The notes below the pieces were generated by a model. It did no database searches, was not told the DNA's origin, and saw nothing but the letters and a program-made list of their open reading frames with translations. Both the position numbers and the translations under genes were made by a program. A DNA stretch of 64,000 bases from Psammoneis japonica (Eukaryota), in contig QPGO01000054.1 of NCBI GenBank assembly GCA_008632985.1, positions 1 through 64,000 on the forward strand, in the 5' to 3' direction. Of this stretch, positions 3,230 through 30,126 are shown piece after piece. Within the stretch, counting starts at the first letter, position 1. Each line of letters starts with the position of its first letter.

Positions 3230-4760
3230 GGACAAAAAGGCAAAGAGAGCAGAATTTGATCCCTTCGAATGGATCCGATCGCGCAGAAAGACGTCGGATG
3301 TCGCATCAGCGCCGGCCATAAAACATGACACCCAACTGCCGCTGATGGCCGACGGCTTTTGAGATCTTAGGGCTACACAACACTTCCCGTATTCGCCAGG
3401 CTGGTGAATCTCTCTCCTCAAGAAGACTGACTCCTGTTTGCCCCAATCTCGCCACTGGTTCAACACAAGAACAAGAGCCGGTGCAGCAGGGCCCAGCATG
3501 AAGTTTGCACAAGGGTGCCAAATGTGACGGACTCGTCATTGTTCAACAAGGCACCATCAAGACAGTCAATGTTTTGATTGGTGACACCAAGGTGCAGGAC
3601 TTGACCTTTGGTTGCAATGGAGTCTTTGGGCAGAATCTCATTCAAGACGAAAAGCCATGGCCAGGCGACGCGAGGGCGCTGACGGATGGAGTCATGTTTT
3701 GCCTTTCACGAGACAACTTTATCTGGGTGGACTCGATCTAGACAAGTTTGTTGCCAAGAGCTTGCATGAGCGCATGCTGGTGCGTTTTTGACAGTGTCTC
3801 GCTCTTGCATGTGCTCTTGTCAACTGTTGTTGTCGATGCTCACATGATGCTTGCAACTGAGCTAACTCTGCAGCAAGCAATTGATCTCTTTCGTAATTCC
3901 AATGTCGACGATGTCGAAATTGATTCAATTGTGGATTGAATCCAAACCATTCACGATGAAAACAAGTACATCTTTTTCCAACAAGGCAAGGTCGTGACGC
4001 ATCCAACGATTTGCATTGTCATTTCGGGAACAGTTTCGGCATCCACCAACAGTTTGTCAGGCAGAATGACCAAGATTCTCGAATCAAACAGCATGTTTGG
4101 ACATGAACAACTCGTGCCAGAAACAAAAGGAGAACCCACAAAAGCAACATGCCGGTGCACCATTGCAGTGGCTCAAGACGTGACAATGGGTGTCTTGACT
4201 CTGGAGGATGTTGAAGGGGTCATTTTAGATCAAGCAAGACTGAGCAGAAAGATTGAAGAGGCACCCACCAAACCGGGACATTCGATTCAACTTGATTCCT
4301 TGGAAATGCTCAAACTGCTGGGAGCGGGCACCTTTGGACAAGTGTGGCTAGTTTGTGAAAGTGACAACCCAGACATTGGCGCAACAAAAAACTGCTCATC
4401 AAGAAGGCAACGCCAAGTGGTGGTGACAGCAGTCAAAGAGCAGGCAAAGCGATGCATGTGCTCAAGGTCCAATGCAAGCGTGATGCACTGAAGTGCAGCC
4501 AAGCAACGGGAGCACTGGAGGAGAGAGCAATTGTGCAAAAGATGGGTCATCCCTTTGTCACACGTCTGCTCGATTCGCACAAGGACGAGGAGTGTCATTG
4601 CATGCTGGTCAATCCATTTCAAGGTGCAGAGCTGTCCAGTGTTGTTCACACACATGAACTTGACGGCATTCCCGAGGATGAGGTTGTTTTCTATGCCGCA
4701 GCAGCATGACATGCTGGACAGTGATGGATGTTGTGTTTCAATCGATCTTGGTTTTGGCGA
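3230..4760 (+). pseudogene. cGMP-dependent protein kinase (PKG)-like pseudogene: cNMP-binding domains plus kinase N-lobe
   Basis: PTICIVISGTV...MFGHEQL (cNMP-binding), LKLLGAGTFGQVWLV, HVLKVQ, HPFVTRLLDSHKDEECHCML, QGAEL, FYAAA and DSDGCCVSIDLGFG. Stops and frameshifts are present and the catalytic HRDLKPEN segment is missing. Confidence 0.8.
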
Positions 4761-5004
4761 GTGTTGCATGGGTGTCATTTGGCAGCAGAGGCACAACTCT
4801 TTTAAATGCATGTTGTTTGCTCATTGTGTCTTGAGTCCACCACGGCCTTCAGTGCACAGGGTCGTGATGCCGATCACGACCAAGAGGAGATTTGGAACAA
4901 AATTGTCAATGCTTCCACTTTTTTGGTGTGATGATCCCCCGACTGAAAGTGCGGGAAGTGGCGTCAGCCTGACTGCTGCAAGTGCAAGAGCTTCTCGGTC
5001 GTCG

Positions 5005-5720
5005 ATGGCTCAAACCTCCAACACAAGTTCTCCAGACAACAATGTCGTGGTCATGAACAGCGGGTGTGACTTGCATGATGAATCATTTCCAAAGCAATTT
5101 AACACCGGCCTGATTTCACGTGAAGAGTGCAATGAGAAAATGCAGCAACTCAGAGAACGCTTGGACGAGTGGAAATGCGGAAGAGCAACTGTTGCGATTC
5201 TAACCGCTGCCTTGTTTGTTCTTGTTGCCTTTTTGTGGCCTGCTTTGCTGCCCATTTTTGGAGCAGCCCGCTGTTTGATCATCCTGGGTGCATCACAGCC
5301 ATGGCTGTGACCATCACTTCTGCATTTTGCCTCCTCCATTGGTGTTCACGACGGGAATCGCAGAAGCCAGTGGTGGACGTTGAAGACTTGCATCAACTCT
5401 GGAGAGGCTGAGGCGTCCACGTGACAATGAAACGACATGCAAATGTCGCCCAATCAATCCCATGTGTGCAACGTTCATCAAGAGCAACACATGGAGGCAA
5501 CCCACATCTGGGTCAAATTGTCGTCATGACACCAATCGATGAAAACAAGGAAGATGCGCAAGACAATGCAAGTGTGGGAACAATCATGACTGATGCCAGC
5601 CGCCAGAGTGGAAGTGGTGACAAAGCAAATGAGGAGGGAGAGGTGAATGTTGCAGATGATGTCATTTGGAAGCAGTGTGTTGCGTCGTTGCGTGTTGCGC
5701 AAGCAGCAGCTTGGATTGAC
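5005..5720 (+). pseudogene. Degenerate host-gene fragment, possibly an ERF4/golgin-A7-like membrane protein
   Basis: SGCDLHDESFPKQFNTGLISREECNEKMQQL followed by hydrophobic segments; frameshifted. Confidence 0.35.
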
Positions 5721-7238
5721 TGAAGCTTTTCGAAAAGTTCGAGCCATGAAATCATGAGCATTGATTTTAAATGGCACGTTTTGTGCTTCACGCACAGGAG
5801 CCTCGGGACATCCTTTGAAGCCGTGCAAGCCCGCCTTGATGTGCTGCAGCCCCACTGGAGTAGAACTCACCACACAGCGGACGCCATCTTTCACGAGAGC
5901 AGCAATCGGCAGCTGTTCTTTAACTGAATCGGAGTCACAGGATGGCATCTGTTTTCCAACTGAATCGTTGCTCTAAAGTGAGATCAATGGCCAGCATGCG
6001 TGCTGGGTGCAAAAATGGGAACGTTTGCAAGAGTTTTGCGTGGAAGGACTCACGATGATAAAATGCTACACAGAAAATGGTCTCTGACGGCAGGTCCAGT
6101 TTACGAAAAGGATTCATGCTTTTCAACAAACCAAGCAACAACAACGAGCACAGCTTTCCATCTCAGTTGCTTGTCCTTGATCCGCATGGCAACTTGAGCT
6201 GCGCTTTCACTCCGATTTAAACGCCACAACAGAACACAGATCTGCAGAGCATTTCAAGCAGTTTGGAAGAAAGAGAGCCCGTGAAGCAAGGTGGCAAACC
6301 ATGAGAGGGAGATCTCATTCAGGAAGCCTTGCCAGCCAAATCCATTTCTTGCCGTCAAGCATGATGATCTCATCACTCTTGCAAAAGACACTGCAACTGT
6401 CAATGGCACCAGAACAAAAGAAAATGGCGAGTGTCTCTCGCAAGATCTTTTGCTTCATTGAAACCAACCACAATTTTTTTTTGTGAAAGCACTTGGCAGC
6501 CTCAAGTTGGAGCAGTCCTTTGACATTGAACCTCAATTCCATGGATGGACGGTTGTCTTGTTGTTCTCCCGAACCGTTGCTGGTTCATGTCACGACAACA
6601 AGAAGCCACCCACACAAAAATGCTGATGATTCTTCCGCCTCAGTGTCATCACATTGATTTTAACTAAGATGGAAGGGTCACAGAGTTTACTTTCCATGCA
6701 GCCGACCAAGCCCAAGGAACAACTGAGGGGCTTGTGGTGAAGCGATTGCCTTTTTGTTGTGGAGTTGGCAAACACTGCCACCGTTTCCTGAGGGCAGACA
6801 ATGCAGAAGAGTCTTGGGTGCCATCTTGCTTCCTTGATTGGTTGTTTTCTGCAAAATGCATGTCTCGCAAAGCAAGAACCAGTTGTGGCAGAAAAAGAAG
6901 CTTGAGCTTGAAATGATCAATCCTTGCATTCTGACTTGTGTCGGAGGATGCATTGAAGTCAATGCTGCACATCCTGGGCCATCAGTTTGGCGGGGTTGGC
7001 AGATGCTTTTGCAGCATGAGGCGGGGTGGACTGGTGGACCACGACGACTTTTGNCTCAGGGTTTCGAACCCCTGGCCTCCTGCCCAATGGTTGCGATGAA
7101 CCACTCCGCTGTGAATTCACAACGCAGCATGCATGCAGACAAAAGGTTGTTTTTGTCATGCCCTTTGTGACATTTGAAGGCTGCAACATGTCGCTGTGAT
7201 GCATTGACTCTCACCAGCAGCTGCACATTGCAGGGCGG

Positions 7239-7775
7239 TCGTGGCGGCAGGTGTTCGTTGAACTCCAACACAGCACACACGGTGGAACAGCACGTTCTGG
7301 CAATGATTGAGGTGTGGCAAGCCAGGATGGTTGCTCAACGACAAGTCATTGCCACCAGATGACACTCATGCACAGCGCATGTGCCACAAGCCCAATGATC
7401 CACATGCCCCCATCCATGTTGATCAAATTACGGTCTGAATGGTTTGGCCTCTTGTCTGACTGCAAGAGGCCCGGGCTCTGCTGAGAGCACCCATGTCGTC
7501 CCTTGCACGACAGCGTTGTTGCCCTCTCTGTCACGTTCGTTGTTTGTTCTCACAAAGTTGGGCCATCGTGGCGGCAAGTGTGTGTTGAACTCCAAAACCA
7601 GCACACACGGTGGAACAGCTTGCACTGGCGCATGTGCCACAAGCCCAATGATCCACGTGCCCCTGCCCTGTGCAGCAAGATCCATGTGTTGAGCAAATTA
7701 CGGTCTGAATGGTTTGGCCTTGCATCTCACTGCAAGAGGCCCGGGCTCTGCCAAGCGCCCATGTCATCCCTTGGT
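7239..7775. repeat. Imperfect tandem duplication within the degenerate block
   Basis: GTGGCGGCA..GTTGAACTCC, GCGCATGTGCCACAAGCCCAATGATCCAC and CAAATTACGGTCTGAATGGTTTGGCCT each occur twice (~7240-7505 and ~7568-7773). Confidence 0.8.
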
Positions 7776-10397
7776 TGCAAAGGTTGAACTCCCCAGAGAT
7801 CGCTCAGTGACTCCCATCTGCCACTTGGCACATTGCTTTGTCTCTTGCCTTTGTCTCTCGTGCAAGCAGGGTCCCATCAAACTGACTGCACCTGATGCTT
7901 TTCGAAGAGGTGGGTCACGTGCTGGGATGCGCTCTGCTGCTGGCGCAGAAGAAGACCTTGTTCATGACGCGTGCACATGTGAGTGTCACTTGGCTGCCGC
8001 AACTCTCTTCTTTGTAAGTCAAGCTCCGTCTCTTTCCAGCTTGTGTCTTTCCTTGATGATGGCAGTGTGTTTTCTGCCAAGCAGTGGGCACATGTGTGTT
8101 GTTTTGACGCAAAGTGCTCAAAACTAGTTGCAAATCGTGTGGTCAAAGACAGCAAGAGGCAACCCTCGATCAAAATCTTTGTTCCATCACATTGGCATGA
8201 GCCGCCAACTGCCACGGTCCAAAATTAAACTTGTTGTTCTTCCTGAACACAAAACTCAAGATTGGAGTCCTCATCTTTGCCCTCTCTTTTGGGCACAGTG
8301 TGGCTGCTCAAACCATGCTGTGCTTTTGGCACAACTTGCTGTGAAAACTGGTGCAAGATCCAGTTTCAAACAATGGATGACATGCATGTGGCAGCACTGG
8401 TGGTCTCATGCTGACACTGCATGAGATCATGCAGGAAAAAGTCGGTGACTTTCATGTCTGTCATGGACAGGAAGTGAGTGATTTTCTTGCTGGCAAACAA
8501 GGTGAGCCAGAGATTCATGCTGGTGCCAGTTGTTGTGGAGATGGCTGCCAAATTGCCCCAAACATCAAGCACCCATGGAAAAGCATGCAAACGATCTGGG
8601 GCACATGAAGCAACAACTCATGAATCTGAGGAAGGATCTCCAAACTGAGCTTGCTCCATCGTTTCTTGCCAGCTCTGCACAAGATCATTGCTTTGCAGAT
8701 CTGAGTTGGCCAATGATGACTGCGGTTGCATCAAGCACAGAAAGATGCCATCCGCATGGCAGTTGTCATGATGATCCACCCAAGCAGCAGAAAGAGGAGC
8801 CATGACAATGTCTGCCATGTCATCATCGGAAGCAACTGGCGGGGATTGGCAGGCTCTTGGAGGACCAGCCAAGGTTTCTTTCCATGCAGAAAATCTTGTT
8901 GTGGACTGGCACTCTGCTCCATCATCCCAAAGAACAGTCCTGTTGTCCCCCGTTTGCACACATGACTGAGCAAGCCTTGATGGCACCAACTGAATCAAAG
9001 GGCACCAGCAACTGTCCATTGTTGTCCTTTGGTTTTTCAAGGAAACAGAGCTGGCATCTCCAGGGACTTGTCAAGAACTTTCTCATCATGCCTGCACTGT
9101 TGTGCAGCTCAAATGCAGCATTGACTGTGATGCTCCTCCAGGCAAAGGCACTGCACACTGGCGTCCCTTGGTTGCAAGAGTTGCTGTCAATCTGGGTGAA
9201 AAAAACACGGTCACTCTTGTGGACTCTGTCATGTTGTTCACCCCCAAGGCATTGTGCACACACACAGCAGAGCAAACATTGCCACCAAGATTGTTCCTGG
9301 TCAGGGTGCCCCTCAAAGCATTGAAAAACCGATTCAAAAACTTGACAATCTCATGGAAGAAGATGTGGGTTGCCACCAGGTGCATCAGGGGTGTCCATTT
9401 GCATCTGCTGCATCATGCATCATTTTTTGTTGGCACCACACCATCATGTGCAAAACCTTTGTTGCCTTCTCTGGAGAGAGTTTGGAGACAGGTGTCATCA
9501 CCTTGAGCAGGATCAGCACTGGGTGACAGATCTGTGCCTCAGATTGTTTGCTTTTTCAGGTCTGAGTTGGATCTCTTGCAGTGTCCACATCCTTGTGTTG
9601 AGAGGCCCTCCAAATCAAGTCTCAATGACACCTGCTGCAGCTCTTCATTTTCTGTCACATTGACTTGAGCAAATCTCTCAATGTGATGCCAGCAAGCTCT
9701 GCATTGGCATTGGTGTGTGTCCACCCCCAATCTCAGCACTTGGCAGTTGGACAGGTGGGAATGGACCAAGTCAAAACATGCACAACAAGAAAGGGTCATG
9801 AGCCATTGGCATCGCCAAAAGATGGTTGTCTCTGATGTTGAGCTGCAAACGTGATTGATTTTAGCTGCAGGGGAGTTGTGCAGTGCAAATGGACATTGCA
9901 TTTTGACATGCCCAACCTGTTTGTGTGCTTTTCTTCCTTCACCTGGCCATGTGTGGTTGTGCCTTGCAAGAGATTGCCAGCAAGCAGCATTGTTTTGCAA
10001 GTTCAATCTGCACATGCAGAAGCTGCGCTTGCTGTTCACTGGTCCAATGCCATCACTGCACTGGTTGGATGGAGCTGTGTCATTGGAGCAGCAGTTCAAA
10101 CTGCTCACTCTGCAGCTGCAGCTTCTGGGGCCAATCGTGGTGCCAAACCAAACCACAGCAAGCCCTGGAACCACTGCAAGACCACAATTTGACAGCTGTG
10201 TCTTTCTGGTCTTTGCGCACATTCCATCCATTGCAACTCTTTCCAATCGTGGCTTGCACCCTGCAGCAATTGAGTCACAAGTTGAGGCACATTGCTGTTT
10301 GCACCATGTGTCAAAACCAAAGCCCCCCAGAAAACCAAACCAACATGTCAACCTCTTCATGACAATGGCAGAAAAAGATCCCCCATGAAAAAGACAC

Positions 10398-11930
10398 ATC
10401 CTCAACCTCCGCAAGACCCAAATTCTCACTGCCAAATTGCTGGAAGCAGCCCCATTCCCACTCTTCCTCCCTCTCAAGCTGACCCTCTCTGTGCCACCCT
10501 CTCATGCCTTAACGCTGAAAATGATTCATCCTGCAGCTCCAAACTCACCTCTGGTGTGTCTGCTTCCTTGGTCAACCCCTTGGTTCACAAACTTTTGCTG
10601 GCTCCTTCTTCTCTGCCACCGCTTCCACCCTCTCCAACAAGGTTGACATGCTCCTCTCTTGCCTTCATGACAAGCAAACTCAAGCTCAACTTTTCAAGCA
10701 TTTCTTCACTCCTTCCTCTGTCCATCCACTTGGCACCAACTTTTGCCACAGCTTTGATCCCAACAACCCACCCAATCCCTTCCTCTGGCCCTCCTCCTTT
10801 CAAGCTTTCTTCTTGCTGCTGCTCACTGATTTCTCCACTCTGTGCCACCTCCCATGCTGCTCCTCTCCCCATTCACCACTCCCTTGCCATTGCCCTCCTT
10901 CCTGCTTTGCTTGGGTGCTTTGGTCTTCATGATCCATCAGCTGCTGCCACCCCTTTGTTTCTGATCTCACTCCTCCTCCACCCCCTCTGCTTTGCATCTT
11001 GCAGCATCCAGCTGCCGTCAGGTGCTGCCGCCACCCTTCCTTGCTGCTTTGAGCTCTCCCTGTCTGCTTGGAACAACCCCCCCGCTTAACCTTGCATCTT
11101 TGCATGATCTTCCATTGCTGTTCCCCTGCTCTTGCTTCTGCCCCTGCCCTTTCTGCCTCCTCCCTGGCTGCCCTTGTCAAGTCGGCCACTCTTCCTGGCC
11201 TGGCCTGGCCTGCCATCAACATCATGAGCACCAGCAACAAATCATTGCTTCTGCTCTTGCCAATGCTCCCTCTGACATGCAAGTCTCTCTGCCTTTGCTG
11301 CTGTCCCTGCTCACCAGCTCACCACTTCATTCTCTCTCTCTCTTGCCACTCCAAGAGCTCTCATCTCACTTCTGATGCCTGTGTTGTTGCCACCCAGTGA
11401 AAACCCAATTCTTCCTTCCTCCCTTGCTGGTGTGCCTTGTCCCTGTGGCTGTGTTGCTTTGCTCAACAATGACAGCATCTTCCTTCTTCCTTTCTCTGTC
11501 AATTACCTCTTGGCAGCCTTGGATTCTTTGCCCATCACATCCTTTTTTGCTCTGTGCATTCATCTGCTCACTCTCAACCCAAGCCTCCCTGGTCCTCTCC
11601 TTCTGATCTTTGCCGCTCTGATGCTTCTTGCTCTGCTTTCCTCTGTGCCATCATCTCCCTCTGCTCTCCTCCCATCTGCTGATTTTGTGTGGAATCACCT
11701 GTCCACTGAACGCTTTGGCACTGCATTCCGCACCACTTCTCCTTCTCAGTGGGCCATTCAAACCCTTGGTCACAGCATTGTCCTTCCCCTGCCTTGTCCA
11801 GCCCTTCTGCCAAGCACCCCACGTCCTGCACTTGCTGCCCATTCTTGTCTGCCGTCACTGCAGCTGTCTCCGTGCCTCTTCTGCTGTCCCCTTTTGCTTC
11901 ACACAGGCTCTTTAACTCTGCACTTAGTTT
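10398..11930 (+). mobile_element. 5'-truncated, decayed non-LTR retrotransposon, CRE-like (RT C-terminus, Zn-knuckle and restriction-like endonuclease region)
   Basis: Joined across frameshifts: ILNLRKTQILT, SGVCFLGQPLGSQTFA, LHDKQTQAQLFKH, LPALLGCFGLHDP, LLPFSVNYL/GSLGFFAHHILF and PSQWAIQTLGHSI. Confidence 0.6.
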
Positions 11931-12246
11931 AAAAACGTGCCAAATGAAACTGCACACAAAACACAAACAAGAGCAATGTCAAGCATCAGCCACACACCCA
12001 GCACCCGCACCCGTCGCCATCTAACCATGAACTTTGGCACCGAATTCCTTTCCCTCCCCAAGGACAAGAGGCAGCTCTTGCTGGAGATGACCAAGTTTCT
12101 TGCAGAGTGGAGTAACAACCCGGTGCTGAAACACTCAACACAACGCATTGATGCCACACATGATCACTTTCGTCACACCCAAGAGTGAGCTTCTCGCATG
12201 ACACTGCCTGCTGCTTGTTTCTGTCCTGCTGATTCATTCTAACATC

Positions 12247-12516
12247 TTGACATTTGCTGTTCTCCATGGAAGGGTGAGCGAAGATAAAGGAGAGAAGCTC
12301 AGTCAGGACTTGACGGAAGCCAACGAAGAGGTGGCCGACACGGAGGCTGAAATCGAGGCTCAACAACGCGAGTTGTCTCGCGGCCAAGCGAAGCATGACT
12401 CGTTGCGCGACAAGCTTGCTGGCCGCAAAGATCGCGCTGCTTCAGCCGCTGGAGGGTGCGAGGATTGGAAGCAAGAACACATCAAGTTGACTCGCGAGCG
12501 GGAGGCGTGCTTGTGA
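12247..12516 (+). pseudogene. Coiled-coil coding fragment of unknown origin
   Basis: EKLSQDLTEANEEVADTEAEIEAQQRELSR heptad-like run; TpA-poor but CpG-rich. Confidence 0.3.
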
Positions 12517-12788
12517 CATCTGGGTAAAACCCACCCAGCAGGATCCGCGAGGATTGAGTCGTCGAAACCGTCGAACTCTTGGGGAGCTCCGACTACCATG
12601 CTACTGCCCGTACCGGTATGTTCAGTTCTGCTTCAATGTTGGGGGGCATGTCGTAAGGAAATGGATTTTGTAGAAGCTGTAGTCTGTAGAACAACTGCAT
12701 ATATTTACTAGATCTAGGCCTAGAGATCAAACCGAACACCTTCCAAAGTAGTCGTCTTAAAGATGTATGCGTCCCAACGAATTCATCA

Positions 12789-12902
12789 AACATTTCCATT
12801 ATTAGCGACAGGGAGAAACAAAAAGATACCTCCGCCGTCGTTGTTAACATTTCCATTTTTAGCGACAGGGAGAAACAAAAAGATACCTCCGCCGTCGTTG
12901 TT
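12789..12902. repeat. 57-bp tandem duplication
   Basis: AACATTTCCATTWTTAGCGACAGGGAGAAACAAAAAGATACCTCCGCCGTCGTTGTT occurs twice. Confidence 0.9.
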
Positions 12903-14726
12903 GACGATATCGGAGCGCTAGATTTTGTCCGAGATTGTGAATCGCATCATTCTAGCATATACGAACATATCAATCGCGAGAGCTCTACAACAGAATCGCC
13001 AAAGCTAGCAAATTCTCCATCAAATGATGAAGAATATGATTTCAGCCATTGGAATCCACCACCAAACCATCGGTAGAATCCGGGAGCATCTGTAACTCTG
13101 CCTCGGTTGAACAACGTCATGGGGTCACTTCGATCGTCGTTTCAAATCGGATCGCCCTCCGGTGCCAAGTTTTCACGATACTATACATTGACATGATAGG
13201 TCCAGGAGTTCACGTGCCAGTGATGACACTGCCTGGTTTGCACCCGACAAGGTGATAGACACGGGTACATCGTTGCTTGGAGGCGGCACATTCCGAAACC
13301 ACTGAGTATTACGTGGACGAAAACGCCTTTACTTCAACTTGATCCAAGGCTTGATTGGCTCCCGTGTCTCGATTCTCATAGGGGCGGTCGGCCGTCTGTA
13401 ACCCCAAGGGTACACCATCCATTCCAGCGTCCTTGCCAACCGCGGTCCCACTCGACGTTGTGATTGCGGATCGCTTTTTACTGCTACTGTACGTGCATAT
13501 CCAAGAGCACGAAATCAGGCAGCACGCTCGTCATGAACCGACGTGGCATGGACAATTCTAACATCGCATTTGACAACATCTTTTCCCAATTCCAAAGCCT
13601 TGTCCGTCGTGCTATTCTTTCAAGATTGTGTCAATCAGTCTGTCAAACGACATTTCGGCTCAATCTGCAAAGCCTCGTTCATATCATGGAGCAGCTCGAC
13701 CCAGTCCGGTCGTTCGAAACCATGTTTGGTCTCTTTGAGAACACCAGACACAAGCAAGGCGTCTACTTGCGGAGCGTCCAATAAATTGTCGGTATCCCAT
13801 TTTATCGCCCAATTTGGTTTCCCACAGAGACATGTATCTTGTAAGAGGCCCTCGGCTTTTGTCGTGACATTGTCTTTTGATGATGCTACGTTTGTTCGAA
13901 ACGGTGCGGCACCACTGTAATACATGAATTCGACTGTAACTTGCAGAGGAGCTACTTGACCGTGTGTACAAGAGATGGGATCGTGTACGATTCAAGCGAG
14001 CAGATACCTCGGCGGTCTCGGGGTTAACACCGTGCAAGGTTGAAATGGGCTCTTCTCCAATTCGAAAGCTTGGAGAAAAATTCAGCGAGTTCGATACGGA
14101 CAGTAGCGTCGTGTTGCGGCATCTCGAAATTGTCGACGTTTCGCGGCGGTCTTTGCAGGTTTGGTTTTCTTGATATTCCTGCAGCTTTGTGAGTTCTCTT
14201 CTTGAAGGAGTATGATTATGAAAAGCCGTACGACTTTCTGTTTGTTCTTTCTCTTCTTTAAGTCTCTACCAAGTCAACAAGGTAAACATGCCGTGTGATG
14301 AACTCCGCCGCAAATGCCAATCAGGATTCGCTACAAAGAGCATACTCTCTAGTACGTGCCTCACAACAGCCATGATTTTCCGTTTGAATCAAGAGGACGC
14401 GGAAAGGACTTTAAATTTTGAATTCATTTTTCGCCGAATAGATTTTGTTCAAAAGATTCCCGGTCAAGTTGCTACTCCTACGTTGTCTTTGTTCCGATTA
14501 ATCAATGACGAGAAGGACGTAGAAAAATGACAAATACAGCCGTAAACGTCGGTGCCGCAAGGATTGACATGATTGCAAGCGCTATTGACTGTTGTTGGAC
14601 GGTGAATAGGGGCGTGATCACTTGATTTTTTGTTGTTTTGTTTATTTCAATGCATGCCATGCTTGGATATGTAGAGATTGCAATCGCTATTCGAATGGTC
14701 AAGTGTAATGTACTGTACGTCCATCT

Positions 14727-18576: not shown

Positions 18577-18602
18577 TGTCAACTTTGGCAAGTTTGGTGA
18601 GC

Positions 18603-19159
18603 GGGTCTGCGGGAAATCGCAATTTTTGCCACCTGCTTGTCAAAATTGATGGAATCGCGCCTGCCAGTGCAAAATCTGTCTGACAAGACAAATTTGTTGC
18701 CAACATCACCTCGCAGAAAAGACATTTTCCAGACACAACTTTTGATGCAAAAAACTGTGTGAGACAAAGAAAACTGTGTAAAGACCCGGATGTGTGCAAT
18801 TGAAAATGTCCAAAAATTTGTGTTGTGTGGGAATGTGCCAGGCTTCTACACACAAAGAACCCGCATGTGCATTTTTCAAAATGTGTGACACAACTTTCAA
18901 AATGCACATCCGGGTTGCACTTTTTTGTGTGGATTTTGTGCTGGAAGTCTTGCAGGAATTCTAAAAACACCAGGATGTGCATTTTCGAAACTGTGGCACA
19001 ACTTTGATTTGTGTCAAAAGTTGTGTCAAAGTTGTGTCAAAAATGTGCAAGCTCGTCATGCAGAAAAAGCACGTGTGGCTGCGCTGTTGGCATTGCAAAT
19101 GGTCAAAGCTCACAGAGATTCTCTGTTTTTTGCTTAAAAACACGATTTCCTGCAGACCC
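18603..19159. mobile_element. MITE / non-autonomous DNA transposon inserted in the 9-bp satellite
   Basis: Terminal inverted repeats GGGTCTGCGGGAAATCGCAATTTTT and (reverse complement) GGGTCTGCAGGAAATCGTGTTTTT. Internal CCCGGATGTGCATTTT-like subrepeats. Satellite units lie on both sides. Confidence 0.75.
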
Positions 19160-20447: not shown

Positions 20448-20479
20448 AGCAAGGCATGCACAGCCAGCTGCAGTTGATG

Positions 20480-22000
20480 CCAATGAACTGGAAGATCTTC
20501 TGCAGCATTTCCGGGTCATCAACATCATGCATGAGCTGTCCCAAGTGCAGTGGGGTCTGCACAGGGACCAGTGATGACTTGGAGAATGGTTGACAGCACA
20601 CCAGCCATGCAGCAGCTCTTGTCAGAAAGGGTGCTTCTGACAAAGAAGCAGCTGAGAGACATGGACAGAATGAGGCAGGAGGTTGGGATTGGTCGGACGA
20701 GACATGTCATCCGCTGGCCCATTCTTTTCACCAGCCAAATTGCCACTTGGGAATTGATGCCGACACCCCTCAAAGGCAAAGCACAGACCAAATGCACAAA
20801 TGCCATTGTCATTGAGGAGAGCTGGCAGTGCCCAGATTGCATCAACCAGAGCTGACCACATTGTCAACTCGGTTGAGGTGGATCAAATTTTTGGGGGCAC
20901 CATGGGGAAAGAGGGAGGCCACCAGTTCCAGATCCATGCATGTGCTGACAGATTTCATGAAAGTGACTGTGCCTGCAAGCAGGAGGAGGGCAACAACAAA
21001 ACTGAGAGCATTGTCAGAAACCTGTCCTTGGGGCCATGAGAACAAGGTCAAACCTCAGCTTGCCATGGGGCTCCACATCACAAGGAACCAAAGTTGAAAT
21101 TCCCGGCAGCAACTGCCACCACCTGGTTTTCTTGCATCACCAATTCCTTGGCAGTGCAGATCACATGGGACAATGGCCTCAATCTTTTGTCACAAAAGAG
21201 TGTGGAGTGCTTTTGGCACAGCCCAAAAGACAGAAAATGGACGAGCAAAATTCAGGAAACACCGCCGTCTTGAGATGCAGATGATGTGCGAACTGTGCCT
21301 TTCCCCTGGCAATGATGTTTGGGAGATGATGAACCAACTTGTGTGGGAGTTGGCCACAAACCTGCTGCTCATGCCCTTGCCATGGCAGGGTCTGCTTGGC
21401 AACATGGCACCGAACCATCAAATTGCAACAAAGAGCATGCTGAAAAACAAAAAACCAACACCGAAGTGTGTGATCATGCCAAAAGCATGATGCTCCAAAA
21501 TGCCATTCAAGGTTGCCACCTCCAAGAGGAGGCACTCAATCTTGGGCTTCCAATCGTAAAGAACAAAGATGATCTTGTCAAGCTTGTGATCCACAATCCC
21601 AACAGTCAAAGAGCGGGTGTTGCGTGAGCACCCAAGAAGCTTGCAAAGGAAAGACAGGATGAGGTCAAGCTTTTTCAAGCTCAAGGCATTCAGGACTTCA
21701 TCCTGTGGAAAGCTGTGCAACACATGAATGGCAAAGGCACTTGCAGACATGGTGTGTGCCAAGAATTGTGCAACATCAGCTTGCAAGTTGTTGTCCACCT
21801 GATGCTTGTGAATTGGCAAAATCCACAGTCCATCCTGGAGAATTCCAGGGTTCAAGGAATCTGGGAGCACACAAGAAAATGCCTGTGCCCACCTTGGATG
21901 GAGTCAGTTGTGATGGAAACTCAATCCTTGGAAGGAATGGGTGCATGATCTTGACAACATTTGAGACACAAAATGCATGCTGCACAAGCTGCTGATGGCA
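20480..22000 (-). mobile_element. Decayed Ty3/Gypsy-like pol (RT and RNase H remnants); the element probably extends further upstream toward ~24 kb
   Basis: GIVDHKLDKIIFVLYDWKPKIECLL (CVDYRKLN..P.IE.LL-like), SDNALSFVV...DLELVA and LAGEKNGPADDMSR (N..AD.LSR-like), in RT-RNaseH order. Confidence 0.55.
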
Positions 22001-23102
22001 TTGCGACCATCCATCATTCCAATTGTGCAGGTCAGGGGTGTCCCCAAAACTGCAACCAAGTTGAGCCACAGCTGTGCTGGACCAACGCATGCATCCCAGC
22101 CAGGTTTGGGTTGCATTTCATCATGCGGCAAGCTCCAGTGGTGTCATTGTCAATTGGGTGGATCTCCTGAGATGGACAATTGATCCGTGCATTCCAGATC
22201 CAATGCACAACATCAAGCTCCTCCACAGCTTTGGAGCACTCTGGCTTGTGTTCCAGTGACAAAAAGTTGTTGAAGGCCATGGACAAAGGCTTGGGTTGGA
22301 ACGAGCTGTCCAAAACTGGTCAAGGCTGCTTGAACAATTTGTCAATGTCAACCAAGCTCTGAGGTGACAGATGACAGTTCAAAACACATGGTGTCAATTG
22401 TTGGTCAAAAATGAGAACCAAACTCTGCTTGGAGTCCTTGACAAGAGCCTTGCAAGTTTTCTCTGGATCAACACAAATGGGCAGTTTGTTCCTGCAGTTA
22501 AAACAGTCTTGAAAATTTTCTTCTGTGTTTTGCCCATTGCAGCAGGCTGGAACGCCATCTTGGCAGATGCAAGCAATGATCTTGACAGCAACAGGATCAA
22601 CTTTGCCATCAAGATGATGTGACACAATGCGCTCAATGTTCCGATGTGCTCAAGCATGTGGGCCACCAACCCATCGCACCAATGAAGCCATGTCTCTGTC
22701 AAAATGGAGCAATCCTGCCAAGGTCTGACAAACACGTGTCTTGTTGAGGTCTGACTCTTGCTCCCATCCCAAAGGGTGCCCTTGGAGAGAATTAAAGTCA
22801 TCGGGTGTCACACAACATGGATCCTCCCAATTGTTGACCACACACTGCCAGAGTCAAAGGATGGCATCTCTTGGGGAACAGAGTGCAGGAAACCCAACTT
22901 CCAAAGGGGCAACAAGACATGGTAAAAAAAACAGCTTCAGACATGAAGTTTCTGACAAGCATTGTCCTTGCCAAAAGGTTGGTCCGATTGGGACTGAACA
23001 CGAAGTGACAACTGAGTCCTGATGAACTCTTCACACTCAGCTTTCTTGAATGAGTTGCCAATTGTCAGGATGAGCTGAGAGGAAGAGCCTCCAGTCACCA
23101 CA

Positions 23103-23838
23103 GGGGAAAGGACCGGGCAGAACTCCTCAATCTCTTCAGAGGCAACTGGCGGGATGTCAGGCACATTTTTGGCACACCAAACCAAGTGATGCAGACTTGG
23201 AAAATTCTGCACCCTGGGGCAAGGGGGGCACACCTTCATCCACAGGGACACCAATGTGGCCTGGGGACAAAGTGCTGCCAATGGTGAACAGCCAGTGGAT
23301 GTTTCCAAATGAAACAAATGCGCCAGTTTCATCTGAGACAAAACCAACAAGAAGACACACCAGCAGGACCTTTCCCAGGTGCAAAAGAAAGATTTTCCAT
23401 CTTCTCCTCAAAGTTAACCAACTCGGCACACTTTGCTTCAGGGAGAGCACAAAGATGGTGACATGCGGCTTCTTGGGGAAAGGACCGGGCAGAACTCCTC
23501 AATCTCTTCAGAGGCAACTGGCAGGATGTCAGGCACATTTTTGGCACACCAAACCAAGTGATGCAGACTTGGAAAATTCTGCACCCTGGGGGCACACCTT
23601 CATCCACAGGGACACCAATGTGGCCTGGGGACAAAGTGCTGCCAATGGTGAACAGCCAGTGGATGTTTCCAAATGAACAAATGCGCCAGTTTCATCTGAG
23701 ACAAAACCAACAAGAAGACACACCAGCAGGACCTTTCCCAGGTGCAAAAGAAAGATTTTCCATCTTCTCCTCAAAGTCAACCAACTCGGCACACACTTTG
23801 CTTCAGGGAGAGCACAAAGATGGTGACACACGGCTTCT
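23103..23838. repeat. ~370-bp tandem duplication
   Basis: GGGGAAAGGACCGGGCAGAACTCC... starts at 23103 and 23475; the copies are nearly identical. Confidence 0.95.
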
Positions 23839-26010
23839 TGCATCTGGGACGGTTACAATGAAAGCCACAAGTCAAAAAATGAGCACAAAGGCGCTCTTCA
23901 GATGTTGAGTCAGAGTTCTTCTTAGCCACAACTGGGATGTTGTGAGTCTGGTGGGAATCATCAGAGATGACAAGCATGCCCATCTTCTTGATGAGCTCAA
24001 TCTCATCTGCAGACAACAATGACTTGGATTTCTCACTGGGTGAAGCAGTTCCAGTTGTCAACGGCAATTCAGCGAATTGCTTGTTTGAAGAAACATTCAA
24101 GTTGGCTTTTTTGGCAAGCTGATGTGAGACACACTGGCTTCCAAATGGTCTGCAGGGCTTCTTTCTTGCCAAGAGCCCAGATTCTTTTTGCTGGGCAAGA
24201 ACAGAACTTGCTCATCAACTGCTTGTTTGTTGCAAATGACCTTGTTTGTCTGTCTTGCTGTGTTGCACTCTTTCTCTCCTGAAGCTGGGCAGCATTTCAA
24301 TGCTCAGTTTGAGGTGCAAGAGTCAATCCAGTTGTGCCCCATTTCTGCATTTCAAAAGCAATTGCTTGTCAGCACATGCCAGCATGTGGGCAAGTCATGT
24401 TTTTTGGTGAGCCCTGCACAATGTCTTTGTTCTTGTTTGTCTTTGATCCACCTGTGCCTGTGTGCAACTTTCTTTTTTCACATTTTGTGCATTGCTTGGC
24501 ATGTCATTTTGCCTGAGTGAAAGGCAAAGAAAAAGAAAAAGCACCACCTTTTTTCATGCTGCAGCGCCAGCTTGTTGACACCCCAATGTTCCATTTCTTG
24601 CTTGCTTCAATGCCTCACTCGTCCTTGCACAGTGTTTTCCAGCACTGTGCTGTGCCAGCACACAAAAGTCCTCCTGCAGTGTCCTTGTTGCTTTGTGCTC
24701 TGGCATGTCTCTTGTTTTGTTTTGTGCAGCAGAGCATTTTGTTTTTATGGAGCCAAGCAAGTCAGCCTGTTGAGCCATCTGGTGTCATGCAGCCATTTTC
24801 AGTTTTTAAGCTGTTTTGTTTGTGCCCATTCTTGTGGAGATTTGTGGCTCAAATCCTGTCAGTTGGGTCACACACATGATCTTGACAAACAAAAGATGAG
24901 TCAAATCTTTTGAAAGTTTTGAGCTGAGCATGGTGCCTGCTGCCTCTGTGTCCAAAAACAACTCGTGCTTTGGCTTTTGTGACACAAAAGTGCTCTTGTG
25001 AAAAGAAATTGCAGATGTGCTTGTGGCTGCTCAATTGCCAGTCAGGCCAATTTGTCAAAAAGCAGACTGCTGAAGAAACCCAAGAGAACACAAAACAACA
25101 ACAACATGACAAAGCACGGGGAAGTCTGTTTTTTGTTTGTTCTTGCTGGTGCTGGGAGAACTCAATTGTGGCCTGGTGTCAGAGAGGTGGATTTGGAGGT
25201 GAGTGGCCAAGCAGGCAACAAGCAGGTTGTCCAGGCCACAGCATCATTCCCACATGCACGGGGGGGGGGGGGGCGGGGGGACAAAAGAAGTGGTGTTGGC
25301 CCAGCCAATGCCACAGCACCTGCAAACAAGGCACCTCTGCTGCTCCTGCTGACCAGGCTCCTGCAACCCCATCTCTGGCACAGGAGGCCCTCAGCTTCTT
25401 GAGTGTCACATGACAAAATGTTGTTGTTCAACACCCACAAGCTTGCCAAAGCATTGCAGCAGCAGCAGCAGCAGCAGCAAGCCCTTTGTGCATTTGATCC
25501 CTCTGCACAGCTCCCCCCCCCCCCCTGTGTTGATCATGTGGCTTCTGGCAAGAGGTTGTGAGCAGCATGTGAGTTGTCAACCAGTCAAGGTGCATCCTCA
25601 TGAGACATGCCAAAAATGTGCTCTCTCATGCAGTTGAAAGTGCCATCATGGAGGCACTCACCCAGCTGATTTTTGTGCAAAGCATCTGCTCACCTGCCTC
25701 TTTCAGGGTTGTCATGATGATCTCATGTCCGTGGAATTCCCATGCTGCCTCAACCAAAACAATGAAGCCAACTGCATTGCCCAGGTTGACTGCAGTCTTG
25801 TGAACAAACACTGTGCGGCTAACTGCACACAGGCACAGGCAGCACTCCTCTGCACTGGTGTGCCACAAGGCCAAGTGCTCCACAAAGGATGCCAAATGTT
25901 TCCTCCATCATCTCATGTGACACCATCCCTGCACGCAACAAGAGTTTGGGTGTGACCCTCCATGTTCCCGGCAACATTTCTTCAGGGTTTGAGTTGGCAC
26001 TTGTTTTTGC

Positions 26011-26070
26011 CAAAGTTGAGTCTGCCCAGTCCAGACAGACAAAAGTTGAGTCTGCCCAGTCCAGACAGAC
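26011..26070. repeat. 30-bp tandem duplication
   Basis: AAAGTTGAGTCTGCCCAGTCCAGACAGAC occurs twice. Confidence 0.9.
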
Positions 26071-29000
26071 AGATGCTGAGCATGAAAAAATTGCAAGTGA
26101 ATGAACCCCTTCCCCATCATCCAGTGATGAGCTGCAACTCATGGTGCAGAGTGTGATGTGATGCACACCAGCACAGCATTGCACTCAAAGTGGGGTGAGT
26201 GCACAAAAGGTGTTTGAGCTCTCTCATGAGCACATTTGACAGCACAGCACCCACTGCACCCCCCCTGGCTCTGCCAGCATGCACAAGAACAGCCCAGCAG
26301 GTGGCATGAGCCAAATGCAAATTTTCCTGCATCAACTGGGTGAAAAGCCCATGAACTCTTCCTCTGGAGGGGAACACAGAGAGAGAAGCAGCAGATGCAT
26401 TCCAGCCCTGGGCAGGATTGTGTGTGACATTGGGCCCGCAGAATTCTGTGTGCAAGCTCCACAGCAAAAACATCAAGCAATGAACATGTGAGTCATCGCC
26501 AACAGAAAAAGAGGCCATTTTGTGAATGTGTCTCCTCCTCCACACTTCAAGCATGTTGCTTGAAGTTTGCCCTGGGGTTGCATTCTTCAGACATCAAAGA
26601 GTGTGCCCGGCTTGCAACTTGCTCCAGATTTGGGTGGGCCCACATGAAAAAATGTGCCCATTTTTGCATGAAACATGCGGTCTAAACTTGTGGCACCATT
26701 TTTGACAGTTGCAACACAGTGATTTGCATGTGTCATCATGGCAGCACAAATGCACACAAAAATGTCTTGTGCATGCACCCATGCATTCGAAGCTGAGGAT
26801 GGACTGAGTTTTTGATCACCAAATGGTGCCGCAAGATGAGAGCTTGGTTTTCCAATGAGCAATTCATGACTGCATTTGTGTGATTCAAACACACAAAGCA
26901 AATGTTCTCATGCACAAACTGGCCCTTCAATGGACAATTAAAAGTGTGTTTTGTCAACATGCTTTGACCAGATTTGCCCTCAAGAATGGATTCAATGACA
27001 CATGCATTGCTTGCAAAGTGTGAGAAGACACAAGAAGAAATGAATCCCAGCCCACACCCTGACATCAACTTTGGACCCTTTTACAATGATTTGTGGATGT
27101 GAGCAACTGAAACACTTGCACCAGTTGATGACATGGAGGGAACACACACGGCAGTGGAAAAGAATTTGTCTGCAGAAGCAAGCTGCAAATGAAATGAAAC
27201 CAAGTTACAGTTGATAACAGATTGGTCTTTTTTTGCTCTGATTCAGCCTGCAACAAGCATTTTCATCAATGTCGTTGATGCCATGGAGCCACACAAAATG
27301 CTGCTGTCATCATCATGTTGTTCAATTTCCTGCAAGGTTGAAAAAAGTGGGCCATCATGGCCGCTGAAAGCCACGGCCATTTTGGCCATTGCTTGGTTCA
27401 AATTTCACCCAGTCATCTAATTCCCAGTGCATGAACACAACAACAATTGTGTGATGTCATCGATTTTGAACAAAGCATGAAATGTTTGTTTTTTGTGCCA
27501 AAACGGGCATGTGTGCTCCACCCAAGTCTGGAACATGTCCCATTTTTGTGCTCATGGATGGAGAAAATGGAGAGCCTTTGGCTTTGCAAAACAGGGAGCA
27601 CGGGACAATTTTGCAGAAAATCACATGTCAAAATGTGCGTGCATGGCATGCAACAAGATCCAAAAAACTGTTGATGTCACAGCTCAGCAATGCAAGGTCT
27701 TGCCTGGAGAGTTGGAGAGCACATCAGCAGGGACAAGAAGCTGTTGCTCTCATCTCTGCAATCTGCAACATGTTTTTGCAATTGATGGGAGAAAATCAAC
27801 CAAGAACAAAACTTTTGCACCTGTGGTTGGTGCACTCTCCACAGGCCAGCATCAGAGCACACAACACAGTGATTGAGCATGCCTGTCTCACAGTGATTTT
27901 TTGTGCCATTTGTTTTAAAATTTTTGTGCTGTGATTGGAGACTAGTTGCACACATGGTTGCAACATGTCAATTGTGACAGTTTGACAAATTGCTGCTGTG
28001 GGATTTCTGCCCCCCTCCGTCTGCAGGGGAAATTTCAAACCACTGCGAAACATCCACTTCTCTTCCACAGCTGTGAGCTTGCGGACCCTGCATCCCCACA
28101 AAATGTGCAAACCAAAAGCACTCCATTCATCCCTTTTTTGTTGATTGTCAAAGTCAAATGCAAATGAAGCAATGCATGTTTCATGCAAATGCCAATGAGT
28201 TTGCTGATTTGCTGCTTTTGCCATTTGATGTTTTTGCAGCTCTGCAGGTGGAGTCATCAAGGCCGACAGGTGCAGCGACCATTCTGGGCAGTGCTTTTCC
28301 TGCTGTCTCCCTCATCCTTGTCACTCAAGCCATCTCATCTGCATCATCCTCTTTGTCATTGTTTTCCCTGTCCTTCTCATTGCAGCTCAACAGCTCTGTT
28401 GTTGCTTGTGTCTTTGCCACCTTCTGCGCCGGCTTTTTTCATGGTTGTCACTCTTTTCCCTTTGTGTCACTTTGTCTCTTCTTTTCATTGGTGCACCCTG
28501 CATCAAACTGCACCCCTGCTTTGCTTGCCCTGTCTTTTTTCACCTCATCACACAGCTCTTTGAGTCATTCTGTTCCCACATCTCCCAACAATTTCCACTG
28601 TTTTGCAGGGTTTGTGAACATTGGCAACAGTTTTTTTCTCTTCCTCATCTTCATCTTCATCCTTTGCCCAATCTTCTGTTCCTTCCTTGCCTTGCACTCC
28701 CAAACACTCTGGCAGCTCTCTGATGTTGGCAGCCCCAGTGCCTTGCTTGCTGCAGACAGCTCTGCAACCTTCTTGCTGTCTCCCGACTCCACCATCTTTC
28801 TCCACATTGCAGTGCTTTTTTCAGAATTTCAGTGCATTTTTGTAGAGCCAAGCACGCACTTTCTTGTTGCTCCTTTTTTCACTCCCAATGGTCTTCACAG
28901 TCTTGTCCTCCCAAGTTGGCAGGAATCTTTCTTCAATGGGCAAAGCACACACTCTCTTCCTGCTGCTTTTTTTCTGGGGCACTTTGTTCTTGTCCTGGGT

Positions 29001-29677
29001 GTGTCTCTCCGCTGCCCTTGTTTTGTTCTTGGGCAATTCCCTGGATGGCCTCTGCGACAACGCCATTGTCCCCAATCCCTTTTTGGAAAAACACTGGGCT
29101 GCACTTGCAATTCAGCACATTTTTCATTGTCATCTGTGTGACGGTGTTCCTTTTTGCACTGATGGCACTCAGGACATGCCTTTTTGCCCAGTCTTCCCAC
29201 ATCCCTGCCCGCTTTTGCTGGCCAAATTTGCCACCAGCCATGTTCTTCCGCATCAGCCATGGCACTTTTTCATTGCTCAACATGTCTGCCTTTGCAAGGA
29301 ACTTTGCCTTTAGAAACAACTTTTTCCTTGCAACCTCTTCCACTTCTCTCCTCAGTGCCTTGCACCTCCCGCTTCATCCTGTCCGCCCAGTGCTGACAAC
29401 AGCCTTGGGCTTGCCTCATGACTGGAGATGTCCCTTTCTCTTGTTTTTTTGTGGTGTCTTTGGCATGGTCTTCTTGCCATTGATGTGATGATCATGATCA
29501 CCTTGTGTCTTGCAAAGTGTGATGATGGGCGCTCCTTTGCATCCTGCCATTGTCTGACTCCAAACCATTTTTTTCAACTCCACAATGTTGATGTCAAACA
29601 TTGATTCTCAAGCAATGAAGTTTTTGGCTCAAACTTAATGTTCCATGCACCCATTTTCCACTGAATTAAAAAAAGAT

Positions 29678-30118
29678 TGTCAGCTTTGTCGTTTTTGACA
29701 AGTTTGTCAACTTTGATGGGTTTGTAACTTTGGTGACTTTGATGAGTTTGTCAACTTTGTCAACTTTGGCGAGTTTGCCAACTTTGTCAGCTTTGTCAAC
29801 TTTTGGTGACTTTGTCAACTTTAATGAGTTTGCTGACTTTTTTCCATTTTTGGTTGCTTTGTCTTTGTTGAGTTTGTCAACTTTGGCAACTTTGGTGAGT
29901 TTGCCAACTTTGGAGACTTTGTCAACTTTGACAAGTTTGCAACTTTGCAACTTTGGCGACTCTGGCGAGTTTGTCAACTTTGGTGACTTTATCAACTTTG
30001 ACGAGTTTGTCCATGTTGGTGACTTTGTCAACTTTGATGAGCTTGCAACTTTGGCAACTTGGGTGTGTTTGTCAACTTTGGTGAGTTTGCACCAACTTTG
30101 CCGACTTTGTCAACTTTG
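29678..30118. repeat. Second, more diverged array of the same 9-bp satellite
   Basis: GTCAACTTT, GGTGACTTT and GGCGAGTTT units in the same orientation as the first array. Confidence 0.92.
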
Positions 30119-30126
30119 ATGCGCTG

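Follow-up and report, generated by a model that had tools for sequence, protein, structure and literature searches.

The DNA analysed here (the window) was a stretch of 64,000 nucleotides from the diatom Psammoneis japonica (GenBank assembly GCA_008632985.1, contig QPGO01000054.1, positions 1 to 64,000 of the forward strand), in which two domains are almost devoid of the dinucleotide TpA (TA) and a third has lost part of it. Ratios of observed to expected counts (o/e) of TA, CG, TG and CA were determined in 1-kb windows along its whole length. The domains and the gene embedded between two of them are listed below, with the strand where the feature has one.

3400..11930: domain A, hypermutated, 8.5 kb; TA near-absent, CpG reduced, most strongly from 8 kb on.
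11931..12590: graded boundary; 5 TA in 660 b, an intermediate density, with CpG normal again.
12591..16195, minus strand: spared island with a decarboxylase-like gene (Orn_DAP_Arg_deC, E 2.5e-5); TA 35-41 per kb, CpG normal.
16200..30150: domain B, hypermutated, 14 kb; TA 0-11 per kb, CpG o/e 0.10-0.54.
38200..40400: domain C, partly converted; TA o/e 0.18-0.43, TG and CA raised, CpG normal; non-coding by Pfam.

Each 1-kb window contained 1-7 TA at 4001-12000 (o/e 0.02-0.10) and 0-11 TA at 17001-30000 (o/e 0.00-0.16). Flanking 1-kb windows held 29-55 TA per kb (o/e 0.43-0.84), except for 38001-40000, a part of domain C with 10-18 TA per kb (o/e 0.18-0.31). In both TA-poor blocks the CpG o/e was 0.09-0.68, TG and CA each reached an o/e of 1.3-2.3 and the AT o/e was lowered only mildly. 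The TA o/e was 0.18 or less in 22 windows (4001-12000, 17001-30000 and 39001-40000), where the combined o/e of CA and TG was about 1.5-2.0; its minimum in 70 normal 1-kb windows of the same 64 kb was 0.35. An earlier interpretation of the bare letters (the sequence-only reading) had put TpA at roughly 2 per kb in the core against about 35 per kb in the adjacent gene, and the 1-kb counts show these figures to be accurate. Domain A begins at about 3400 and fades out over 11930-12590. The limits of domain B are sharp, at 16200 and at 30150, where a satellite ends. A TA-rich stretch (16117-16165) lies at the upstream end of the spared island. Between 3400 and 11900 there are 31 TA, 199 CG, 917 TG and 884 CA. 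The 2.2 kb of domain C, a third affected stretch beyond the interval covered by the sequence-only reading, contain 25 TA, 119 CG, 221 TG and 183 CA.

For pooled counts, the depleted DNA was defined as 3400-11900 plus 16200-30150 (22,452 b) and was compared with 37,553 b of normal parts. The depleted DNA contained 81 TA (3.6 per kb), 411 CG (18.3 per kb) and 4831 TG + CA (215 per kb), as against 1481 TA (39.4 per kb), 2192 CG (58.4 per kb) and 5387 TG + CA (143.5 per kb) in the normal parts. Mononucleotide shuffles of the depleted DNA (n = 200) gave 1494 ± 28 TA (minimum 1420), compared with the 81 observed; the depletion is far beyond chance. The depleted sequence is complex DNA and does not consist of simple repeats. 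Per kb, about 75 trinucleotides containing TA or CG were lost and about 73 containing TG or CA were gained. The guanine-plus-cytosine (GC) content of the depleted blocks was unchanged at about 0.48, because the gain through TA to TG/CA offsets the loss through CG to TG/CA. TG and CA were balanced across the domains (917/884, 317/269 and 992/1059).

Direction and specificity of the change were read from one ancestor-descendant pair, found by self-comparison of the window.

18135..18576: hypermutated copy of a gene fragment (the descendant), 442 bp, 91.9% identical to 31003-31444.
31003..31444, minus strand: unmutated parent of the fragment, within the orphan open reading frame (ORF) 30844-32934, in normal DNA.

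The two lie 12.5 kb apart and align without gaps. The parent sits in an open frame of 696 codons (ORF 30844-32934), for which no Pfam family and no usable Atlas hit were obtained. It keeps 16 TA in 442 b. All 16 are converted in the copy, eight to TG and eight to CA, with no CG and no unchanged site; in the reverse direction, none of 62 parental TG or CA became TA. Transitions at other A/T positions were found at 6 of 191 sites (Fisher p 2.5e-19 against TA). CG had decayed to TG or CA at 9 of 23 sites (Fisher p 8.6e-5 against TA), and other G/C positions showed 2 transitions in 173. Expressed as hits per site, this corresponds to at least 1.77 for TA (a lower bound), 0.50 for CG and 0.032 for other A/T. 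The 36 differences comprise 22 A>G or T>C, 11 C>T or G>A (9 of them at CpG) and 3 transversions, and AA dinucleotides were unchanged in 24 of 28 cases. The target is thus TA only (16/16 versus 6/191) and confined to a region; the excess is a relative one, taken from sequence history. TG and CA outcomes alternated in 10 runs (9.0 ± 1.9 expected), that is, without strand-coordinated runs. The pair shows that each TA was changed once, on either strand and independently of its neighbours, and that the TG/CA product is immune. The sequence-only reading had claimed that TA becomes TG or CA wherever an ancestor can be recovered, and that a strand-symmetric, domain-restricted conversion of TpA to TpG/CpA acts beside ordinary CpG decay. 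The first claim holds for 16 of 16 sites on the one pair found, and counts and pair agree with the second.

Conversion depends on the flanking bases. Survival of each NTAN tetranucleotide class in the depleted DNA was calculated relative to the genic DNA of the window, which is not the true ancestor.

ATAT: survival 0 (0 observed, about 56 expected)
ATAC/GTAT: survival 0 (0 observed, about 117 expected)
GTAC: survival 0.015
ATAG/CTAT: survival 0.021
CTAC/GTAG: survival 0.055
ATAA/TTAT: survival 0.074
CTAG: survival 0.09
GTAA/TTAC: survival 0.157
CTAA/TTAG: survival 0.237
TTAA: survival 0.595

ATAT and ATAC/GTAT are fully converted, and TTAA is largely refractory. An additive two-strand model in which one flank sets the rate fitted the ten classes (Pearson chi2 3.35, 6 degrees of freedom) and was better than a single rate (likelihood ratio test 101, 3 degrees of freedom). 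For the base 3' of the target A, the relative rates were T 2.64 > C 1.78 > G 1.20 >> A 0.21; in the mirror version that follows by symmetry, they apply to the complement of the base located two positions 5' of this A. The survival data are symmetric by construction and are the same for both versions. Both flanks may matter.

The reality of the TA-free sequence was checked in one public sample with three sequencing runs (X1 to X3), of which X3 yielded no aligned contigs. Reference-free contigs of X1 were compared with the window and covered all 30 bins of 3000-19000. The listed core pieces differed at 5 of 501 positions (8912-9412), 3 of 550 (9538-10087), 4 of 391 (10336-10726) and 8 of 547 (11651-12197), when about 20 TA per 500 b would be expected had these pieces carried TA. 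Being near-identical to the TA-free window, they show that run X1 likewise lacks TA. Differences from the window across all aligned contigs were mainly transitions (A>G at 94 places, T>C at 99, C>T at 86 and G>A at 85), each class of transversion being present at 3-10 places. Among 34 classified events (40 listed rows), 6 were adjacent TG<->CA swaps, 14 had TG or CA in the window and CG in X1, and 1 had CG in the window and TG in X1. One had TG in the window and TA in X1, the sole TA restored; 2 had TA in the window and CA or TG in X1, 1 was TA>TT and 9 were of other kinds. Swaps of TG and CA between data sets arise because one ancestral TA (or CG) was converted independently in two lineages; they cannot stem from misreading. 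X1 may represent another haplotype or strain, or part of the contigs may have been filtered out. The 14 CG events leave the result on TA unaffected.

An artefact of sequencing, base-calling or polishing, in which true and perhaps modified TA is misread as TG or CA, was one of the outcomes that the sequence-only reading had named as able to undo it. Such an error could draw on the N present in the assembly and on the several hundred differences from X1, mostly transitions, and the 14 listed places with TG or CA in the window and CG in X1 could be miscalled 5-methylcytosine (5mC). Against this, over the whole 16 kb the reference-free X1 contigs are themselves TA-free, and a TA is restored in just one of the 34 listed events. 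Symmetric misreading would also yield calls that conflict between strands, not a clean 8 : 8 split without TA or CG, and the parent copy and the embedded gene are read normally in the same assembly. An artefact is unlikely; we give it a very small probability.

The content of the domains was analysed by Pfam searches with 207 stop-to-stop ORFs (70 aa or longer) from the depleted DNA and domain C, and by repeat comparison. The following features were recognized.

3502..4706, plus strand: decayed host-type gene at the edge of domain A; two cNMP_binding matches and a kinase N-lobe, with in-frame stops.
16350..18485: multi-copy part of domain B; summed contig depth 1300-4560 versus 150-520 elsewhere.
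19162..20419: satellite of about 140 copies of the 9-bp unit TTTGGCAAC; one column pair varies between CG, CA and TG.
23103..23840: tandem duplication, two copies of about 365 b, 96% identical; 4 mismatches, made up of CG|CA, TA|CA and an adjacent TG|CA swap.
29677..30121: further array belonging to the satellite family of 19162-20419, with greater divergence; it ends at the right-hand boundary.

In the 207 ORFs, Pfam detected neither a transposase nor a reverse transcriptase or integrase, and no viral domain. No pairs of long terminal repeats (LTR) or terminal inverted repeats (TIR) were found in the domains, whose long repeats are the satellites and two small duplications only. ARAGORN found no tRNA in them, and no Rfam family reached its gathering score. 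Where the sequence-only reading had seen relics of transposable elements (TE), satellite and gene fragments, the last two are therefore borne out and the TE relics are not, as no TE or viral Pfam domain, LTR or TIR was detected. Heavy, saturating mutation may hide the origin of the domain DNA. In the satellite at 19162-20419, about 60 units have CA at the variable column pair, about 25 have TG and about 16 have CG; CpG decay is thus caught in place. The duplication at 23103-23840 is young and arose after most of the conversion. In the decayed gene, the cNMP_binding matches had E values of 1e-8 (3502-3738) and 6e-5 (3940-4488). The Pkinase match (E 3.7e-5, 4365-4706) covers profile positions 25-104 of 263 only, the first third of the kinase domain. 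This relic is TA-poor. A count of Tyr to Cys/His changes by alignment of the relic to typical kinases was dropped, the relic being too diverged.

Coverage by run X2 was restricted to the kinase-like relic and the genic parts (3000-4600 and 12600-15800). Its loose ends at 3523, 3839, 4134 and 4418 run on into TA-containing sequence, and at differing sites it has CG or TA where the window has TG. It looks like transcript-type data, or like an intact paralog of the kinase relic elsewhere in the genome.

Long ORFs are present in the core because TAA and TAG are gone. The mean chance ORF there is about 40 codons, and chance ORFs in domains A and B, with much Cys, His and Trp and no Tyr, reach 150-420 codons. 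The longest non-satellite core ORF (9542-10501, 320 aa) had no homolog among 1.84 billion representatives; about 0.2 such ORFs are expected by chance.

The TA-depleted state is common to DNA of unlike kinds in the domains: the gene relic, satellites, and both single-copy and multi-copy sequence. The domains start within 100-700 b of gene ends, and their boundaries are 100-700 b wide. The spared island keeps normal TA throughout, including its non-coding parts and neutral sites. Targeting is probably by location or chromatin state and not by homology alone, because the euchromatic parent at 31003-31444 is untouched; purifying selection on this parent could also have preserved its TA. Chromatin state is the probable targeting signal, to judge from the spared gene and from the concurrence with CpG decay. 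Since CpG decays in the domains as it does at methylated silent DNA of Phaeodactylum, the domains would be marked by 5mC. In Phaeodactylum, according to the available text of one study, cytosine methylation depends on DNMT5a and TEs are its major targets (PMC9998398). TA loss runs ahead of CpG loss: domain edges and domain C have low TA with near-normal CpG and, in the pair, TA was lost at least 3.5 times faster than CG. CpG survival by 5' base was 0.26 (TCG), 0.33 (ACG), 0.35 (CCG) and 0.37 (GCG) of normal. Loss was strongest at TCG/CGA, which falls to 0.12 of normal in the core, and TTG/CAA showed the second largest gain.

What the locus records is a historical signature together with polymorphism (window versus X1, and tandem copies). 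Continuing activity is suggested by the TA|CA and TG|CA differences between the copies at 23103-23840 and by the partial state of domain C, and diverged copies or alleles were converted independently. Just outside domain A, in DNA of normal composition, lies a 95% tandem duplication (2327-2600 / 2696-2974) with 9 mismatches, including 3 of TA versus TG/CA and one TG|CA swap at adjacent bases. From these mismatches, the process may reach weakly past the visible boundary.

A system of this kind was described recently. In a 2026 preprint, Mettrop et al. report that integrated viruses of the chlorarachniophyte Bigelowiella natans are hypermutated (A>G/T>C) at TpA and nowhere else (10.64898/2026.01.13.699255). 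Of 302 nuclear mutations in 15 mutation-accumulation lines, 231 lay within two integrated regions, one from a giant virus (186 kb) and one from a virophage (25 kb); 230 of these 231 were A>G or T>C, all 230 at TpA. The rate was about 6e-7 per site per generation, an excess of about 1000-fold, in some lines only. The hypermutable region, derived from a nucleocytoplasmic large DNA virus (NCLDV), was transcriptionally silent, and the authors propose an ADAT2-type deaminase and a role in defence (same preprint, 10.64898/2026.01.13.699255). The statement of the sequence-only reading that no such system had been described is therefore outdated. As far as the available preprint text goes, the likenesses are a TpA-only target, TpG or CpA products according to strand, regional confinement and a large excess, and clusters of 1-kb windows that are depleted in TpA and enriched in CpA + TpG, which are present here too. 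The host is a rhizarian there and a diatom (stramenopile) here. TA o/e is 0.45 in the NCLDV insert there, against 0.00-0.10 here. There the targets are viral inserts, whereas here they include satellites and host gene fragments and show no viral or TE domain. CpG decay runs alongside here and is unmentioned in the preprint text that was available, which likewise gives no flank dependence, in contrast to that found here. An embedded gene is spared and a parent copy untouched here. Finally, the mutations there arose de novo, while here a historical signature and polymorphism are read. The phenomenon is of a known kind, very recently described. What is new is the diatom host, the near-saturation, the coupling to CpG, the spared gene, the untouched parent copy and the flank dependence, as well as targets without recognizable viral or TE genes.

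We are highly confident that a real in-vivo mutation process specific to TpA has acted on this diatom DNA and, by analogy, we think it likely to be the same kind of system as in B. natans. On balance, the whole seems best explained by a TpA-changing process confined to silent, cytosine-methylated domains. In the proposed mechanism, one base of the palindromic TpA would be changed (TA to TG, or TA to CA when read on the other strand), and this would be confined to transcriptionally silent, cytosine-methylated chromatin domains. The adenine that follows T would be deaminated to inosine, which would be read as G. The agent would be an enzyme that acts on DNA, either TadA/ADAT2-like or otherwise of the deaminase fold. 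It would target both strands of the palindrome, the TG/CA product would be immune and the flanking bases would set the rate. Deamination to inosine is the simplest chemistry yielding A to G, and a TadA/ADAT-like DNA adenine deaminase is the best candidate; to an adenine deaminase as the agent we give slightly less than an even chance. The natural substrate of TadA/ADAT2 is A34 in tRNA, preceded by U33. Engineered TadA base editors act on DNA. DNA editing by the tRNA adenosine deaminase ADAT2 has reportedly been seen in amphioxus (PMC10354150). The fold is chemically capable of A to I on DNA, and U33-A34 matches the need for a 5' T. We know of no natural chromatin-targeted DNA adenine deaminase that has been established. 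More tentatively, an ancient chromatin-guided defence might be common to diatoms and chlorarachniophytes, in which a TpA mutator, perhaps an adenine deaminase, saturates silent methylated domains regardless of homology or foreign origin.

Several points weigh against this interpretation. One clean ancestor-descendant pair was available, with 16 TA sites, and its 7 strongly asymmetric sites split 5 : 2 between the mirror flank models. Flank survival is relative to genic DNA of the window. Chromatin state and methylation were deduced from the nucleotide sequence. Because TA is its own complement, A to G and T to C are the same event; adenine chemistry is an assumption, and T to C would fit equally well. 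No deaminase, DNMT or polymerase domain was found in the window by Pfam (20 + 207 + 76 ORFs), in agreement with the statement of the sequence-only reading that the window encodes no candidate enzyme. Among 727 windows of 1 kb from 80 related eukaryotic metagenome loci, none had a TA o/e below 0.20; these loci (around kinesin relatives, 424,096 b) form a small, gene-centred sample that says little on heterochromatin. X1 shows only the other letter at the listed places and so is not identical to the window, and 410 further difference rows lie outside the classification. The 14 CG events could mean that CpG decay is polymorphic or that it was overcalled to some extent in the window. The platform of X1 to X3 is not on record. 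The runs may come from the same sample as the assembly, so that their support is independent of assembly and polishing and not of DNA or chemistry.

Because TA is palindromic, every observation would fit a change on the thymine side as well. A modified T of TpA in silent chromatin, for instance 5-hydroxymethyluracil (5hmU) or a product derived from it, made by a TET/JBP-type oxygenase, would give T to C through mispairing or repair. Dinoflagellate DNA does carry 5hmU, preferentially at TpA and TpC, but TpC is not depleted here (TCC, TCT and TCA are about normal or raised). The literature on 5hmU turned up dinoflagellates only, and no report of 5hmU in diatoms was found in the literature search. 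Moreover, 5hmU pairs normally with A, and we know of no route that turns it efficiently into C. We regard this explanation as unlikely. Error-prone repair or replication in heterochromatin, by a Y-family polymerase (Pol-eta-like, WA to WG) or by methylation-coupled mismatch repair, would account for the coincidence of TA loss with CpG decay and silent DNA, and the Pol eta signature includes A>G at TA. However, a WA target predicts hits at ApA, which the pair does not show: the unchanged AA (24/28) and the few hits at other A/T (6/191) disfavour the Pol-eta-type origin that the sequence-only reading had entertained. Saturation of 98-100% with exactly one hit per site is unlike a polymerase error rate, and domain C loses TA without loss of CpG. 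Such repair is in our view rather improbable.

Hyperediting of repeat transcripts from A to I at the RNA level (ADAR/ADAT type), followed by reverse transcription and reinsertion, would suit the multi-copy part of domain B and the preference of ADAR-type enzymes for a 5' U, noted in the available preprint text (10.64898/2026.01.13.699255). It predicts long one-strand runs of A>G, against the 8 : 8 split and the 10 runs (9.0 expected) that were seen. Satellites, a host fragment and 22 kb of heterogeneous DNA are affected alike, with limits at gene edges, and neither a reverse transcriptase (207 ORFs, Pfam) nor an LTR was found; this route is very improbable. Even less credit is given to an ancestral, foreign TA-free composition or to selection against TA, for example by a TA-cutting nuclease. 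No homolog was found for the domain DNA or its ORFs, so that most ancestors are missing, as a foreign origin would have it. Nevertheless, the fragment derived from the neighbouring gene had 16 TA and lost them all, the host-type kinase relic is also TA-poor, TA loss is matched by a gain in TG/CA, and TA versus TG/CA is polymorphic between data sets and between duplicate copies. Deamination of a modified adenine, another candidate of the sequence-only reading, is disfavoured for N6-methyladenine (6mA): the target here is TpA in silent DNA, while eukaryotic 6mA lies at ApT sites near transcription start sites of active genes, with no depletion of ApT reported in the available text (PMC12695648).

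Beside the TpA process favoured here, several established systems offer partial parallels. Fungal repeat-induced point mutation (RIP) shares dense, dinucleotide-specific transitions in silent or duplicated DNA, a coupling to cytosine methylation and an interpretation as genome defence. It acts C to T (at CpA in Neurospora) and creates TpA, whereas TpA is destroyed here; it mutates both duplicates, whereas the parent copy is untouched here; and it lowers GC, unchanged here at about 0.48. The argument of the sequence-only reading that neither RIP nor 5mC deamination explains the loss of TA was sound, TpA being destroyed with GC unchanged. Its term 'reverse RIP' is misleading as a mechanism, given the unmutated parent of the duplicated fragment. 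CpG decay linked to DNMT5 and 5mC in diatoms (PMC9998398, available text) accounts for the CG to TG/CA half of the signal. It cannot remove TA, and TA is lost in domain C without loss of CpG. CpG decay probably marks the domains as methylated silent DNA. ADAR and APOBEC3 are likewise deaminases that drive context-dependent hypermutation against selfish nucleic acids, but they act on RNA or single-stranded intermediates in strand-coordinated clusters, in contrast to the site-by-site changes on both chromosomal strands seen here. The literature search, outside which subscription journals lay, found neither TpA hypermutation nor RIP-like mutation reported for diatoms.

If the cause is the same as in Bigelowiella, a genome-defence or heterochromatin-linked mutator would extend across the stramenopile, alveolate and rhizarian (SAR) supergroup and would not be the curiosity of one alga. 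Diatoms offer transformation, clustered regularly interspaced short palindromic repeats (CRISPR) tools and epigenome maps, so that the identity of the responsible enzyme would then be directly testable. An ancient defence common to diatoms and chlorarachniophytes, if real, would be an A-to-G editor of DNA that occurs in nature, treats both strands alike and favours certain tetranucleotides. Silent DNA in SAR genomes could then be dated by a second compositional clock in addition to CpG decay. A natural enzyme turning A:T into G:C at a defined motif in chromosomal DNA would be of interest for base editing. CpG co-occurrence and the spared gene bear on targeting, beyond what the preprint, in its available text, could address. 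For annotation, the process yields stop-poor, Tyr-free pseudo-ORFs rich in Cys, His and Trp, which gene finders would call as spurious proteins. It also hides the origin of DNA, which is relevant to the annotation of TEs and viral inserts in algal genomes.

The sole N of the window is at 7054, in domain A, within a bin (6738-7271) of depth 35,172 versus 150-520 elsewhere; this depth indicates that a very high-copy sequence adjoins the assembly join. A tRNA T-arm-like motif follows just after the N, where ARAGORN and Rfam call nothing. A 57-bp tandem duplication (98%, 12789-12902) lies at the 3' end of the decarboxylase-like island. Beside domain C, ORF 41196-41780 (plus strand) had sub-threshold matches to class-I S-adenosylmethionine (SAM) methyltransferases (E about 1e-4), with no sign of action on DNA.

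The neighbouring genes are ordinary and encode a myosin, subtilases, a kinesin, a GH99-like enzyme and a lipid-binding C2 protein. The best matches of the kinesin are diatom proteins (54-57% identity). Five long open frames on the plus strand at 48450-56466, four of them with DUF7467 and with internal repeats of about 1.8 kb (78-84% identity), constitute a giant repetitive gene or a tandem gene array. The two subtilase (Peptidase_S8) genes, at 41959-43892 (minus strand) and 46077-47834 (plus strand), share about 67% DNA identity, and an Inhibitor_I9 propeptide match is found upstream in the first of them.

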